NCBI RefSeq assembly: GCF_036971445.1 | Contig: NC_091477.1 | Span: 110,856,001-110,920,000, forward strand | Length of the DNA: 64,000 nucleotides | From: Narcine bancroftii | Lineage: Eukaryota | Reading direction: 5' to 3' | In this document: positions 14,827 through 59,069 of the stretch, in pieces | Layout of the letters: every line of letters starts with the position of its first letter | How positions within the stretch are numbered: position 1 is the first letter of the stretch | Notes under the pieces: generated by a model | Told to the model about the DNA's origin: nothing | The model's input: the letters and a program-made list of their open reading frames with translations, nothing else | The model's database searches: none | Position numbers and translations under genes: made by a program

Positions 14827-15069
14827 CTCCTTTATTGTATTCCGGTGTGTGAATGTTGAAGTTGACATGTTAGACTGCTCACAGAAGAACCCCTGTACCA
14901 GGTCTATCAAGTGACAATAAATTTAAACTGCTGTAAATGATCTGCAATCTTTTGTGTCTCAAGTATTGGCATCAATTTTTGTAAGAGTATTATCCAGTAA
15001 CACTATGAGAATACGCTTTAACTTCTATTGAATGCTATTTATTCTGCACTGGATGGAGTGTCAACACTG

Positions 15070-15318
15070 ACTCCAATCAGCGGGCCAGACAGCCGCGCAT
15101 GCGCAAGAGTCAGCGCGGCCGCCTCCCAGAGCCGGAGAAGCTGATGAGCATGCGCAGTGTTTGGTACGGGGGCCTGTTTGGACCGTGTCGGGTCAGTCGC
15201 CCGGATTTCGGACCCAAACGTCCCGTAATGGCTTCAGCTGTGTGAATTGCGGCGGTGCTTCCTGCGGGAAGGGTTCGGACACAACGGAACTCCGGTCAGC
15301 AGTTAGCCATCGAGGGAG
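15070..15318 (+). promoter_or_regulatory. MFF: MFF CpG-island promoter and probable non-coding exon 1
   Basis: CpG-rich. CCAAT at 15073, NRF1 consensus CGCGCATGCGCA at 15094-15105, second site TGAGCATGCGCA at 15145-15156, and donor-like GAG|GTAACG after 15318. Confidence 0.7.
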
Positions 15319-15326
15319 GTAACGAA

Positions 15327-15526
15327 NNNNNNNNNNNNNNNNNNNNNNNNNNNNNNNNNNNNNNNNNNNNNNNNNNNNNNNNNNNNNNNNNNNNNNNNNN
15401 NNNNNNNNNNNNNNNNNNNNNNNNNNNNNNNNNNNNNNNNNNNNNNNNNNNNNNNNNNNNNNNNNNNNNNNNNNNNNNNNNNNNNNNNNNNNNNNNNNNN
15501 NNNNNNNNNNNNNNNNNNNNNNNNNN
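15327..15526. other. Assembly gap (200 N)
   Basis: Run of N inside the GC-rich MFF promoter/intron 1. Confidence 1.
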
Positions 15527-15707
15527 TGCCAAACCTCGGCCCGTTCCCCATTTTCAAGTGGACCATTAGAAAAAAAAAATTGGCAGTGCTGCTGGTGCGG
15601 ACCGACGGAGAGCAAAGTCTCAGCTCTCCCCCACAGCGTCCATCCACCCAGTCTGGCAGCCGTTGTGCAGGCTTTGAGTCAAGTTTATTGTCATCTGATT
15701 GTACATG

Positions 15708-16075
15708 TCTTCTTCTTTCTTTTCTTCTTCTTTGACTTGGCTTCGCGGACGAAGATTTATGGAGGGGTAAATATCCACGTCAGCTGCAGGCTCATTTGTG
15801 GCTGACAAGTCCGATGCGGGACAGGCAGACACGGTTGCAGGGGAAAATTGGTGGGTTGGGGTTGGATGTTGGGATTTTCCTCCCTTGTCTTTTGTCAGTG
15901 AGGTGGGCTCTGCGGTCTTCTTCAAAGGAGGTTGCTGCCCGCCGAACTGTGAGGCGCCAAGATGCACGGTTTGAGGCGATATCAGCCCACTGGCGGTGGT
16001 CAATGTGACAGGCACCAAGAGCTTTCTTTAGGCAGTCCTTGTACCTCTTCTTTGGTGCACCTCTGTCACGGTGGC
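15708..16075 (-). mobile_element. RTE-clade LINE 3' end
   Basis: GHRDRGAPKKRYKDCLKKAL...DRRAHLTDKRQ...CLSRIGLVSHK followed by a short UTR and a (AAG)n-like tail. Confidence 0.85.
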
Positions 16076-33998: not shown

Positions 33999-34619
33999 GT
34001 ACAGAACTATATTAATTAACAAACTCTGTCTTGCCAATAATGAGTAGATTAATATGGTAATTGTGTGGGATACTAGCAAGTTATTGGAGGAGCGTCATTG
34101 ACAGTTGCTTGGTTGGTCCCAGAAATTCCGTTCCCTCCCCATACACAAATGCCTATCTGAAAATAAAGATTCTTTACAACTTGCATCATATTAGACTTCA
34201 AGTTAAGCCTTTACTCATTATGCCCATTCTTAAGACAGAAACGTAAGGGAGTACAGATACTGGAATCAGTTTTTCTATACAGGATCTCAGCACAAAGCAT
34301 CAGCTATCCTCTCACTTTTGTGAACGTTGTTTGACCTGCTGTGTTCCTCCAATTATCAAGACCACCAACTTCCACCCTCAAAACACCCCAGAACAATTCT
34401 TCCCATTTGTTACATGCAGGCCTGATTGCTCCAACATACTCCTATCCACCTTCTATCATCCTTCAAAAGCTTCAGGCTGCCATATAATATCTCTGCTGAG
34501 ACCCATTCACTTATCAGCTGACTTACACTGGTTCTCTATTAAATAATCTTTTAACTTTAAAAAAAAAAAAAAAATTCTGGTCCTTGTTTTCAATTTCCTC
34601 TTTGACTCGCTTGTCTTAG

Positions 34620-35213
34620 GAGTTGGGAGGTGATGTTGAGATTGTATAAGACGTTGGTGCGGCCTAATTTGGAGTTCTGCGTGCAGTTCTGGTCGCCTAA
34701 TTATAGGAAGGATATAAACAGAGTGGAGAGAGTGCAGAGAAGGTTTACCAGAATGTTACCTGGGTTTAAGCATCTAGAGTATAGGGAGAGATTGGACAGA
34801 TTAGGTCTTTATTCTTTGGAGCATAGAAGGTTGAGAGGGGATTTGATAGAAGTATTTAAGATTATGAAAGGGATAGACAGAGTGGATGTGGATAAACTAT
34901 TTCCGTTAAGAGGAGGAAAGATTAAAACAAGAGGACATGAGTTAAGAATTAAGGGGCAGAGGTTTAGAGGTAACATGAGGGGGAACTTCTTTACTCAGAG
35001 AGTGGTAGCCGTGTGGAATGAGCTTCCGGGAGAAAGAGTGGCGGCGGAGTCAATTGTATTATTTAAGAAAAGGTTGGATAGGTATATGGATGAGAAGAAG
35101 ATGGAGGGTTATGGGCATTGTGCAGAGAGGTGGGACTAGAGAGGGGTGTTTGGTTCGGTGCGGACTAGAAGGGCCTAATGGCCTGTTTCCGTCCTGTAAA
35201 TTGTTATGTTTAT
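34620..35213 (+). mobile_element. Young 5'-truncated CR1 (HER1-like) LINE
   Basis: Uninterrupted ORF2 C-terminus LYKTLVRPNLEFCVQFWSP...RRLRGDLIEVFKI...TRGH...FFTQRVV..WNELP, then 3' UTR and microsatellite-like tail. Confidence 0.93.
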
Positions 35214-36070: not shown

Positions 36071-38076
36071 ATGAGCACTGCATCAACCATATCTTCTGCT
36101 GAATATTTTTCTCAAAAACAGTTGGTGATACAAAGGGTCAAAGATTGTTTTTGCCTCTTCTGTACCATGTAGGCTTTCTCCAGGCACTGATTGCTCCCGC
36201 CATATAACACTGGGAAAGGAATCATGTGGACAAAAGAATATATTGTTGCCTCAGATTTAAATATTTATTCCCTTACTTTATTGAAACTCATTTTGCATGT
36301 CTGTAATTAGGGAATGTGTAGCTTTCAGGATTTTTTTTAAAAACATGTATAAATGACTACATGTCCAGGAGAGCATCACAAAACATGACAGGGAATGAAG
36401 TGCAAGGTGGTCTTTTTAAATTTTACTTTCTGTTGAGAAAAGTTAAATTTAAAGAAGTTGCAAGAGCTGTATATTGACATAATTCCCAAGAATTATATTT
36501 TTGTTCTATTTCATTGTGATATGAAATTGACTTTCTGGTTATGGGTCCTTCATATTTTTGTTTTGCATTGATTTTGAAAGGAATAATATCGGTCAAGGCA
36601 ATACAACTATCAACTGCAACAAAAATAGATCCCACTTTCATTGATTTTTAATACCACCATGTTCTGTGATCATTTTAAAATATGTGACTAATTGGGAAGT
36701 TTCCCCCAAAATTGTTCTGAGTATGCTTTCTTTAAATGCTGAAAGAGAACAGTCATTGCGTAGCCTTGACTTATAGTGTTCTGTTGAATCAAACAAGTGT
36801 TTACAGTGTATCTTTTTTGATCTTAACCTGCTGATGTACAAATTTAGTTTTGACATTGTATTAAAGATATTGAAGGAAAAGTGAATGCAAATATATTTAA
36901 AAATGTATTTCTGGATTAATGTTGTGTAAATCTTGGATGTGGTAAACTTTTTTCCTATTGTATCTTTTTATGTGAGCAAGCTTGCTGGGGGTTATCAGTA
37001 CAAACATTTATGTACATAATAGATTAAATACAATTTTGCTGTAAAGAAAATGAAATTTGAATACTGGGGTTTTTTTTCCTCCCTAGATCATGTGACAATT
37101 GTATTTTCTTTCGTTTATCAAAACCTGTCATATTTCCTGACCTCTCCAACATGTGTCATAACTGGCCAGTTTGAAGTGAAGGAAAACATGATAACCTTAT
37201 CTCCAACAATGCACCCTGGCCTCTTTCTCTTTCTGGCAATTGTTATGCTCTGCAATTCACAATCGCAGCAATTTATTTTTCTTATTTATCACCCTCTATT
37301 TAGGCTTTCATCAACCCCGCCAAGAGCATTTGCTCTGTAAAAGCACAATGCTGGACAAGCCCAGCAGGTCAAATAGTGCCCTTTATATAACAAAGATTTT
37401 TAAAAATTACCTTCATCAAGGTAAGGAAAACTGTAGGCCGGCATCTGAATAAAAAGGTAAAGAGTTGGGCATGGGGGAAGGAACATGGACATAAAGGGAG
37501 GAGGTAAAAGATGGAGAAGGGAATAAACAGGATGAGGAGGGGCAGATCAGAGACGATCCCGATCCTTTTGTTTACTCCTGCAAACCACCCTTTTTGTGCC
37601 ATTTTAAAAAAATGTTTTCTCACTTTCCCCAGTCTGGATGATGGGTCTCATTGACCTGTCATGACATTACCCAACTTGTCGGGTAATCTTAGGTATTCAA
37701 AGGAAAAACTTGTCCGATACACAATCCTTTATTCCCCTGCCCCCCCCCCCCCCCCCCCATTAGCAGCTATGTTCTCGGTGGTTCAGCCTTCTCCATCGAC
37801 CTTGCCTGTCTTCAAGGGCCATGTGAAACCCCACCCCAGCCGGACCAAAATGATAACCTTGATGAAGGGCTCAAGCACGAAATGCATGTTTATGTCATTG
37901 TTTGACCGGCTAAGTTTCTTCTCTGCCTATTCTATGTAGGACAGCACTTCAATTTCTCCATGCTTTTGTTTTTGCTTTGAATCCGTCCTTTTCAAATAAA
38001 CTCCAAACTAGTTAACCAGAGATTCGTGCAGCATCGACAGGCGAAGAAGCGTCCGATCCGCCGCAGATTTTCAAGC

Positions 38077-38844
38077 GCGCAGGCGCAAAGTTAGTGGGCG
38101 CCTGTGAGTCCGAGACGCGCAGGCGCGATTTAGGAGGTCGCTGGAGACTTTCGGTGCGCAGGCGCAATGTCAGGAGGTCGCTGGAGGCTTTCGGGGCGCA
38201 GGCGCTATATCCCGAGGTCGCTGGAGGCTTTCGGGGCGCAGGCGCAATGTCAGGAGGTCTCTGGAGGCTTTCGGGGCGCAGGCGCAATGCCAAGAGGTCG
38301 CTGGAGGCTTTCGGTGCGCAGGCGCAATGTCAGGAGGTCGCTGGAGGCTTTCGGTGCGCAGGCGCAATGTCAGGAGGTCTCTGGAGGCTTTCGGGGCGCA
38401 GGCGCAATGCCAAGAGGTCGCTGGAGGCTTTCGGTGCGCAGGCGCAATGTCAGGAGGTCTCTGGAGGCTTTCGGGGCGCAGGCGCAATGCCAAGAGGTCG
38501 CTGGAGGCTTTCGGTGCGCAGGCGCAATGTCAGGAGGTCGCTGGAGGCTTTCGGGGCGCAGGCGCACTGCCAAGAGGTCGCTGGAGGCTTTCGGTGCGCA
38601 GGCGCAATGTCAGGAGGTCGCTGGAGGCTTTCGGTGCGCAGGCGCAATGTCAGGAGGTCGCTGGAGGCTTTCGGTGCGCAGGCGCAATGTCAGGAGGTCG
38701 CTGGAGGCTTTCGGTGCGCAGGCGCAATGTCGAGGTCGCTAGAGGCTTTCGGTGCGCAGGCGCAATGTCAGGAGGTCGCTGGAGGCTTTCGGTGCGCAGG
38801 CGCAATGCCAGGAGGTCGCTGGAGGCTTTCGGGGCGCAGGCGCA
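38077..38844 (+). repeat. 40-bp GC-rich minisatellite in the MRPL44 promoter/5' UTR, one NRF1-type motif per unit
   Basis: Unit GCGCAGGCGCAATGTCAGGAGGTCGCTGGAGGCTTTCGGK. GCGCAGGCGC occurs 20 times at 38-40 bp spacing; the array ends 6 nt before the ATG. Confidence 0.95.
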
Positions 38845-38850
38845 AGTGTC

Positions 38851-39023
38851 ATGGCGTCGCTGGTAGGGTGCCGCAACGTTTTCCATGGGTTCCGGCAAGC
38901 ATGTTCCGTGAGGCAGACCATCCTGTTCACTCAAACGAGGGAGAAGAAACGGTGGATGAGGTCCTACGAGCTGCTGATGGAAAGGAAAAGGAAGATAGAA
39001 GGTCCTCCTCCGCCCAAACCCCG
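38851..39023 (+). CDS. MRPL44: Mitochondrial ribosomal protein mL44, exon 1
   Basis: MASLVGCRNVFHGFRQACSVRQTILFTQTREKKRWMRSYELLMERKRKIEGPPPPKP(R): presequence-like N-terminus, donor CG|gtgtgt. Confidence 0.92.
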
Positions 39024-39515
39024 GTGTGTTTGAGGGAGAACGTTTGGCCTTGGTTCCTTCCCCAGGTGAACCGATCAGGAGGCCCTGGGATGGGAAAGCG
39101 CTTTTAATCCGTCCCGCTGTGACGGGATCTGTCTTGGCAGGTCATGATGTAGAAATAAAATCCGTTTAAGTGAAACTAAGAAACTGCAGAGTGCAAAAAA
39201 AAACCCGAGGGAAGTTATTTATTGTAGTAGTATTGGGCATGGTGTAAATCCCTAAATGATCATGAGAAATTATCATTAGACAGTAAGCCTCGCAGGCAAG
39301 CTTGCTGGACGTGAAAGTTACCACCCTGTTAGGGAGCTGAATAGGAAATGAGCTGGGATATTATCTTACAGCTGTACAAGATGTTGATGAGACGACACTT
39401 GTGGACAGTTTTGGTTACAAATCTGTAAGAAGGGTTGATTAAACTCGGGAAGGTGCAGAAAAGATTCAAAGGGCGAATGCTGAGATTGGAGGGCTTTGAG
39501 ATAAGATAGCCTGTT

Positions 39516-39683
39516 GGGAAGGAAATTCTTAACCTCAGGTGAGGGGAAGGAAATTCTTATCCTCAGGTGAGGGGAAGGAAATTCTTATCCTCAGGTGAGG
39601 GGAAGGAAATTCTTATCCTCAGGTGAGGGGAAGGAAATTCTTATCCTCAGGTGAGGGGAAGGAAATTCTTATCCTCAGGTGAG
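39516..39683 (+). repeat. 6 x 28-bp tandem repeat within a decayed CR1 fragment in MRPL44 intron 1
   Basis: Unit GGGAAGGAAATTCTTATCCTCAGGTGAG; AAATTCTT recurs at 39523, 39551, 39579, 39607, 39635 and 39663. Confidence 0.95.
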
Positions 39684-41508: not shown

Positions 41509-41977
41509 ATCGCAGCAGCCAAACTGGGACTATCATGCTGAAGTAGAGGCCTTTGGTCATCGTCTTCTTGAGAACTTCAACCTGGATCTTCTCAAAACAG
41601 CCTTCATTAATCCCTGTTACATTACTTTTGAGGAAGCACGGCGGCACGATCTTCAACTTGACAAGGAGAACATCAAATTGAATCTTAAAGACAATCAGGA
41701 TTTATCCAAGACAGGCCTGATGTTTGTCACCACTTATCTCCAGGACTGTTTGAGTCATGCCTATTCAAATTTGCCTGATGACGGTATTAAGGCACTTATT
41801 AGTCATGTCACAGGGTCACAAGTTGTGTGCCATGTTGCCAGAAACTTGGCTGTGGAAGACTTGATACTAAGTGCAGAATTTCCTATACCACAAGAGGTTT
41901 TACAAAATACATTTTTTGCTGTTGTTGGAGCTTTGATTGAAAGCAGTGGAACTGAAAAAGCCAACTTATTTATCCGG
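41509..41977 (+). CDS. MRPL44: MRPL44 exon 2 (RNase III-like domain)
   Basis: ttag|A...CGG|gtaagc. [37 protein letters not shown]...[13 protein letters not shown]...TFFAVVGAL. Confidence 0.96.
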
Positions 41978-43502: not shown

Positions 43503-43681
43503 GACTTCCTAATTACTCAACTTATTGGCAAAGATCTGTTTGAAATATGGAGTGTCATTAATCCCATGGGACTTTTGGTGGAAGAATTGAAGAAGAGAAA
43601 GGTGTCCCCTCCTGAGCCCAGACTGACCAGACAATCTGGATCTGGCACTGTACTTCCAGTATATTTTGTTGGACTATACAG
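43503..43681 (+). CDS. MRPL44: MRPL44 exon 3
   Basis: ctag|GAC...AG|gtagga. [59 protein letters not shown]. Confidence 0.96.
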
Positions 43682-45010: not shown

Positions 45011-45179
45011 TGATAAGCAGCTCATTGCAGAAGGACCTGGTGAAACAGTGTTGGCTGCTGAAGAAGAGGCAGCACGAGTAGCACTGCGTAAAATTTATGG
45101 ATATACCGAAAACAGGCGGCCTTGGGATTACTTGAGCACCTCAAAGGAACCTCGTGCAGTCAAAGCTTTGAGCAGTTAA
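45011..45179 (+). CDS. MRPL44: MRPL44 exon 4 (dsRBD-like end)
   Basis: tgcag|T. DKQLIAEGPGETVLAAEEEAARVALRKIYGYTENRRPWDY...SS*. AATAAA at 45270. Confidence 0.96.
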
Positions 45180-57718: not shown

Positions 57719-58489
57719 GGGGTGGGAGTGGGAGTGGGGGTGGGGGGGGAGTGGGGTGGGGGAGGAGTGGGGGTGGGGGAGGAGTGGGAGTGGGGGGGAG
57801 TGGGAGTGGGGGGGAGTGGGAGTGGGGGTGGGGGTGGGGGGGAGTGGGGGTGGGGGGAAGTGGGGGTGGGGGGGGAGTGGGAGTGGGGGGGGAGTGGGAG
57901 TGGGGGTGTGGGGGGAGTGGGAGTGGGGGGGGGAGTGGGAGTGGGAGTGGGGGGGAGTGGGAGTGGGAGTGGGGGGGGAGTGGGAGTGGGAGTGGGGGGG
58001 GAGTGGGAGTGGGAGTGGGGGGGGAGTGGGAGTGGGAGTGGGGGGGGAGTGGGAGTGGGAGTGGGGGGGAGTGGGAGTGGGGGGGGAGTGGGAGTGGGGG
58101 GGTGGGAGTGGGGGGGAGTGGGGGTGGGGGAGGAGTGGGGGTGGGGGAGGAGTGGGGGTGGGGGAGGAGTGGGGGTGGGGGAGGAGTGGGGGTGGGAGTG
58201 GGGGTGGGGGTGGGGGGGAGTGGGGGTGGGGGAGTGGGGGTGGGGGGGGAGTGGGAGTGGGAGTGGGGGGGGAGTGGGAGTGGGGGGGGAGTGGGAGTGG
58301 GGGGGGAGTGGGAGTGGGGGGGTGGGAGTGGGGGGGAGTGGGGGTGGGGGAGGAGTGGGGGTGGGAGTGGGGGTGGGGGTGGGGGTGGGGGGGAGTGGGG
58401 GTGGGGGAGTGGGAGTGGGGGGGGGAGTGGGAGTGGGGGGGGAGTGGGAGTGGGAGGGGTGGGAGTGGGGGGGAGTGGGGGTGGGTGGG
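57719..58489 (+). repeat. G-rich (GGGAGT/GGGGGT)n low-complexity repeat with G-quadruplex potential
   Basis: About 770 bp with no C on the + strand; G-runs of 3 or more separated by 1-3 nt loops. Confidence 0.97.
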
Positions 58490-58908: not shown

Positions 58909-59069
58909 ATGGCAGCCAAGCGAAAGCAGGAGGAGAGGCACCTGAAGCTGCTGCGGGAGATGACCACGCTGCTGCACAACCGGAAATGTTTCGACTGCGA
59001 CCAGAGGGGCCCGACCTACGCCAACATGACCATCGGCTCCTTCGTCTGCACATCGTGCAGCGGCATCCT
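58909..59069 (+). CDS. AGFG1: ArfGAP with FG repeats 1, exon 1 (gene continues beyond the window)
   Basis: MAAKRKQEERHLKLLREMTTLLHNRKCFDCDQRGPTYANMTIGSFVCTSCSGI(L): ArfGAP C4 zinc finger, donor CT|gtgagt. Confidence 0.96.

Follow-up and report, generated by a model that had tools for sequence, protein, structure and literature searches.

In the electric ray Narcine bancroftii, the conserved start codon of MRPL44 (ATG at 38851), the gene for the housekeeping mitoribosome subunit mL44, is directly preceded by an array of about 775 bp of head-to-tail units, each of which carries an NRF1-type motif. Judged from the sequence of its units, this array is likely the product of a tandem duplication in which the NRF1-type site, leader and first codons of MRPL44 itself were copied. 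With somewhat better than even confidence, we regard it as an NRF1-motif minisatellite which derives from the gene's own start region and probably acts as a CpG-island promoter, and in which additional units would be expected to raise protein output only slightly.

A sequence-only reading had placed 20 such sites at 40-bp spacing before the start codon, and a motif count over the window, i.e. the whole stretch of 64,000 nucleotides that was analysed, agrees with it to the base: GCGCAGGCGC is present at 20 of 20 positions from 38077 to 38834. Matches to GCGCANGCGC in the 64 kb number 22: besides the 20 of the array, a palindrome at 15095 contributes one match per strand; shuffled sequence contains a mean of 0.01 such matches, and none of 100 shuffles gets to 22. 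TRF reports a period of 40 with 18.7 copies and 91% matches (38117-38863). With a GC content of 0.66, 79 CpGs and a CpG observed/expected ratio of 1.03 (vs 0.35 for the window), the array not only adjoins the MRPL44 ATG but also makes up the CpG island. Its units all lie on the plus strand. Unit 1 (38077-38116) is strongly diverged, with 17 ungapped differences from the consensus and its NRF1-type 10-mer intact, and by unit alignment unit 2 (38117-38155, 39 bp) is moderately diverged and has no ATG. Units 3-19 (38156-38833) are near-homogeneous 40-bp units in a variant-repeat pattern, with the 10-mer in each and 15 upstream ATGs among them; unit 17 (38716-38753) is shortened to 38 bp by a 2-bp deletion and contains a TAG at 38740 that closes the MRPL44 frame. 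The terminal unit (38834-38875), which is homologous to the repeat unit and is its putative template, comprises site 20, a 7-nt leader, the ATG and the first codons. Divergence had been thought to be confined to the first two units; these are indeed diverged, but so is unit 4 (five substitutions), and unit 17 has its deletion. Similarly, the 6 nt given for the distance from the last site to the ATG are correct if the A that follows the site is counted with it, whereas the ATG lies 7 nt past the 10-mer itself. ‘Phasing’ at 40 bp was rejected as a special feature, since this spacing (3.8 turns at 10.5 bp per turn) is a simple consequence of the period. Nine unit types can be told apart among units 2-19; their order is patterned and includes repeated pairs, which is what a real minisatellite should show. 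TATA, CCAAT, GC-box and GGAAG motifs are absent from 37800-38900, and an Rfam search of 37000-39600 gave no matches at E 0.1.

On the minus strand, all 20 sites read GCGCCTGCGC, a site that, according to the available text of PMC10810270, is functional in the human TFAM promoter and needed there for activation by NRF1; in the same text, binding to this AT-centred site is about threefold tighter than to a CG-centred site. The same NRF1-site 12-mer is also used in an Nrf1 probe for Sdha (available part of PMC11415578). With all 20 sites reading the human TFAM site, the motif can be taken as a genuine NRF1-type site, as had been claimed, whereas the flanked consensus ascribed to it, i.e. a pyrimidine before and a purine after the core, applies to 13 of the 20 sites; the other seven, including the ATG-proximal one, have a G before the core. 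In units 2-19, 15 distinct variant events can be counted, and all of them fall outside the core (P = 0.013 with a preset window and 0.024 by positions). Since an event-free run of 10 bases would be found somewhere in the unit by chance with P = 0.21, and since the finding was chosen for its motif, this invariance is a weak hint at selection on the NRF1-type core.

That the downstream gene is MRPL44 is borne out by coding exon 1 (38851-39023, with the donor GT at 39024), which is 100% identical to residues 1-58 of P0001, the mL44 protein of N. bancroftii, and by exon 2 (41509-41977), which is also 100% identical and has readable splice sites. Exon 3 (43503-43681) and the coding part of exon 4 up to the stop (45011-45179) follow, likewise on the plus strand, from their matches to P0001 and their splice sites, and the encoded protein is identical to P0001. 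At the end of exon 1, the donor region (39024-39029) contains a possible later site that would add Cys-Val, and the Mobula protein P0003 has both extra residues at this junction; intron 1 contains a near-perfect 28-bp array of six copies (39516-39683). MFF-like exons lie upstream of MRPL44, and the array precedes a protein-coding gene between other genes. Met1 of mL44 is invariant in 14 of 14 aligned fish proteins (picked from 120 listed matches), and the first 10 residues are common to Pristis and the protein encoded here, i.e. at the protein level other fishes have this start region too. When searched with the translated last units plus exon 1, one protein (P0121) of two candidates was recovered, without a repeat-like extension; in a metagenome scan with exon 1, none of 386 pattern matches was confirmed.

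The repeat unit itself resembles this coding start. Beyond its 10-mer, it aligns with site 20, the leader, the ATG and about seven codons of MRPL44, with a score reached by 10 of 20000 shuffles; the duplicated segment holds the motif and copies the adjacent sequence. The true start ATG corresponds to AGG in the copies, and ATGGCG is found once in 37800-38900, at the true start. Because the copies read AGG for ATG, the YY1-like core noted in the sequence-only reading was not amplified and is present in the terminal unit only. Readings of ATGGCG at the MRPL44 start as a YY1 or TISU element, based on a comparison with what we take to be their consensus sequences, were rejected, as it is equally plain Met-Ala and is missing from the copies. 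The proposal that the core promoter itself was amplified therefore has to be narrowed: gene-start sequence was tandemly amplified, but not the whole core promoter, since the copies lost ATGGCG. With Met1 invariant and the same first 10 residues in Pristis, the coding start likely predates the copies, and it probably was the template of the units and not their product. As to its history, the array may go back to an old, diverged cluster of four sites (units 1, 2 and 3 and the terminal unit), from which the unit-3 type would then have expanded by slippage or unequal exchange, perhaps triggered by a mutational bias at germline-bound NRF1 sites.

A one-base gap beside the core creates a new ATG in 15 units, five of them in the MRPL44 frame and ten out of frame. 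All five in-frame upstream ATGs end at TAG 38740 in unit 17, which therefore precludes an N-terminal extension in this allele. Coding use of the array was rejected, since none of the 15 upstream ATGs opens into MRPL44 and Met1 is conserved. Units 2-19 contain two plus-strand stops, both in the MRPL44 frame. The whale shark protein P0012 has an annotated 7-residue N-terminal extension (residues 1-8) which ends in Ser-Val, and Ser-Val is also the in-frame reading of the leader in our window; speculatively, this extension could reflect an AT-centred NRF1 site that creates an upstream ATG.

Eight sequencing runs from one organism contain the stretch, and four of these (X1, X5, X6 and X7) were compared on 38780-39500, i.e. 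over about one and a half units; X1 is one of four DNA runs, and X5-X8 are RNA runs by our guess, their records having no RNA label. Contigs of X5, X6 and X7 (three of the three RNA-type runs compared) leave the genome at 39023 and continue with exon-2 letters, so that these runs hold spliced RNA and MRPL44 is spliced and expressed in those samples; such contigs map neither transcript starts nor strand. In X1, a joint leads 40 bases back and the summed depth is 114-184 on the unit vs 5.7 on the flank (which is not a copy number); this run also has a 61-letter contig whose mismatch pattern appears to fit only the private variant of unit 13 among 14 candidate places. X7 contains a 70-letter contig which is one perfect cycle of consensus units and needs adjacent consensus units; the contig ends of this run coincide with branch points of the long array's graph, and the depth of its array contig, a poor measure, is 6.5 vs 186 for the mRNA contig (3.5%). 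The start of an X7 contig at 38809 was rejected as a transcript start, being a graph branch point, and this run has no cover on the intron bins at 39030-39329. X6 starts at 38839 at an adapter, has intron cover with a depth of 4.9 and shows no array contig in 38780-39500, an absence which proves nothing alone. In X5, whose record orientation was verified with the help of two further records, one spliced contig extends 338 letters upstream of 38780 with two other letters, and further array contigs are absent on the unit compared, which again proves nothing by itself. Among three simple graph paths, only the one through units 1, 2, 3 and the terminal unit, i.e. with four sites, gives two mismatches for this contig, and it predicts a word share of 0.664 vs 0.65 observed (0.38, 0.59 and 0.85 for alternatives). 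In this graph-based reconstruction, the unique upstream flank (37804-38076) would belong to the X5 contig, in which spliced MRPL44 would be linked to an array with four sites. The contig is with nearly even chances a short allele or an assembler collapse of the long array, and copy-number variation between alleles is hinted at. X5's 338 upstream letters and X7's consensus cycle also suggest that some RNA may begin well upstream. Further downstream, a G>T change at 39164 occurs in one low-depth X5 contig and is absent in X1 and X6 (an allele or an error), and many unrelated contigs pile up on a dispersed-repeat fragment at 39350-39400.

How, then, might this promoter operate? In human cells, according to the available text of PMC11269187, activator sites such as those of NRF1 are enriched upstream of the core region from -40 to +40, and NRF1 helps starts downstream of it but represses a start when bound downstream of that start. 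For MRPL44, we propose that NRF1 dimers bind the units and that sites 18 and 19, 97 and 57 bases before the ATG, would be well placed for transcription that begins in the last unit. For a start deep in the array, many NRF1 sites would lie downstream and the leader would contain out-of-frame ATGs; a leader free of ATGs would result only if transcription began within about 45 bases of the end, past the ATG at 38805. Owing to both NRF1 blocking and out-of-frame ATGs for starts up the array, output would saturate after the last few units, while the array as a whole would keep the promoter open and unmethylated.

This saturating arrangement has to be weighed against a copy-number rheostat of the TRIB3 type, in which segregating alleles would range from about 4 to 20 NRF1 sites and MRPL44 mRNA would increase with their number. 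We consider this rather unlikely, but it would account for the X5 contig, which fits the 4-site path both by mismatches and by word share and comes without more array contigs on that unit, and it is in line with a core that stays invariant across the variant events. It also agrees with human VNTRs less than 100 bp from a start being twice as likely to affect expression, with 65% of effects positive (available text of PMC8024321), and with TRIB3 promoter activity, which can rise stepwise with copies in the part of PMC7425993 available and which also counts against saturation. The 4-site path is, however, the shortest one through the k=31 graph of the long array, so that assembler collapse or library slippage would give the same contig, and NRF1 downstream of a start represses it (PMC11269187, as far as available). 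A more elaborate version, which seems unlikely to us, is a segregating battery of about 4 vs 20 NRF1 sites that tunes the supply of a mitoribosome subunit, with the core under selection and the unit-17 stop guarding the targeting peptide; here, NRF1 blocking, together with the 15 upstream ATGs, would concentrate productive initiation in the last unit. Alternatively, the array could be a transcribed leader, with its 15 upstream ATGs and GC-rich structure damping MRPL44 translation and the TAG in unit 17 kept to avoid a masked targeting peptide. Consistent with this, the spliced X5 contig extends upstream, the consensus cycle in X7 appears without intron cover, both plus-strand stops in units 2-19 share the frame of MRPL44 and folding of the strand is strong (z -4.4, 20 shuffles). 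Yet X6 has intron cover but no array contig, the array contig in X7 has 3.5% of the mRNA depth and might come from traces of DNA whose signal the copy number multiplies, chance alone would put both stops into one frame in 1 of 9 cases, with only one of them downstream of an ATG, and self-complementary GC repeats fold well anyway, all of which makes us regard a damping leader as quite improbable.

Even less probable is a methylation switch of the TERRA type, in which methylation of the 79 CpGs would displace NRF1 and lower MRPL44 expression in some tissues. Such a precedent exists in the tandem 29-bp units with NRF1 sites under methylation-dependent control at TERRA promoters (available text of PMC6600276), and CpGs are plentiful in the array. 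The array is not depleted of CpGs, however, and none of the 15 variant events in units 2-19 is of the CpG deamination type, which speaks against germline methylation and weakens such a switch, although a young array would look alike; moreover, spliced MRPL44 contigs were present in all three RNA-type runs compared, and mL44 is a housekeeping protein. That the array is an assembly artefact and the true locus has only a few units is highly improbable in our assessment. While the fit of X5 to a 4-site version and the DNA runs having 0.88 of the sampled words, not all of them, could be taken that way (0.874 would be expected if single-copy array words were dropped, and X1 seems to keep one), the nine unit types in patterned order, the 40-base back-joint, unit depth and apparent unit-13 private variant in X1 and the perfect cycle in X7 argue for a genuine array. 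As X1 may be the assembled animal, it supports the assembly rather than representing a second individual.

Elsewhere in the window, a CpG island at about 15000-16000, some 5 kb before the first MFF-like coding match, contains one perfect NRF1 palindrome (15094-15105) and a partial NRF1-type site near 15150; the region 15060-15160 is likely the MFF promoter with ordinary single-site control. A G-rich array of 770 bp (57719-58489), possibly a G-quadruplex or Sp/KLF array, ends 420 bp before an ATG at 58909, the start of a product which we take to be AGFG1. Large arrays near gene starts are thus not unique in this window. A 177-aa frame at 34606-35139 belongs to a dispersed-repeat fragment, presumably the end of a LINE.

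The sequence-only reading had seen in the array a candidate for an undescribed regulatory system, a view that finds no support, since TRIB3 and TERRA already exemplify copy-number and NRF1/methylation control by tandem promoter repeats. The human TRIB3 promoter contains a 33-bp VNTR that carries a factor site and is present in 1-5 copies, and for which polymorphism and dosage have been proven (PMC7425993, available part), and both cases can be seen as lineage-specific tandem amplification of a short promoter segment with one factor site. The site in TRIB3 is of the C/EBP-ATF type, however, whereas the ray locus has an NRF1-type motif, 19-20 units and what appears to be a decayed start codon plus first codons in the unit. 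TERRA promoters of the 61-29-37 type have NRF1 sites in each 29-bp repeat and give methylation- and NRF1-dependent output (PMC6600276, available part); common to both systems are NRF1-type sites in each CpG-rich tandem unit within a CpG island, with the units acting as promoter in TERRA. These repeats are subtelomeric, drive a non-coding RNA and are methylated in telomerase-positive lines, in contrast to the array described here, which lies before a single protein-coding housekeeping gene and bears no sequence sign of methylation. In human spermatogonia, NRF1 sites are hotspots of motif-duplicating insertions of 5-20 bp, as stated in the available text of PMC8559717, and homotypic clusters can arise in this way by tandem duplication without any need for selection. 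In the ray, the unit was expanded about 17-fold and, at 40 bp, is longer than such insertions, so that the array works like this class but is not filed there. Among human VNTRs, 13,081 lie in coding, untranslated or promoter regions and 57% of the promoter ones are polymorphic, and most of those affecting expression (e.g. at AS3MT and CSTB) are under 140 bp (PMC8024321, available part), compared with about 775 bp for this array. In the literature searched, which covered few subscription papers, we found neither this locus nor a repeat at the MRPL44 promoter described. Taken together, this is likely a known kind of promoter repeat that also occurs in humans; particular to it are its size, its contact with the start codon and a unit derived from the coding start.

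Thus, the locus defines no new kind of regulation, but represents a clear and unusually long example of a promoter minisatellite in an electric ray, in which a factor site together with the start codon region was amplified at an essential gene with the protein remaining unchanged. If a 4-site allele does segregate beside the 20-site one, a comparison of the two MRPL44 alleles would show under natural conditions whether homotypic NRF1 sites are additive, saturate or block one another, and if the sites indeed form a battery that tunes mitoribosome subunit supply, its alleles would be a natural ladder for studying how the number and position of NRF1 sites set the output of a gene.
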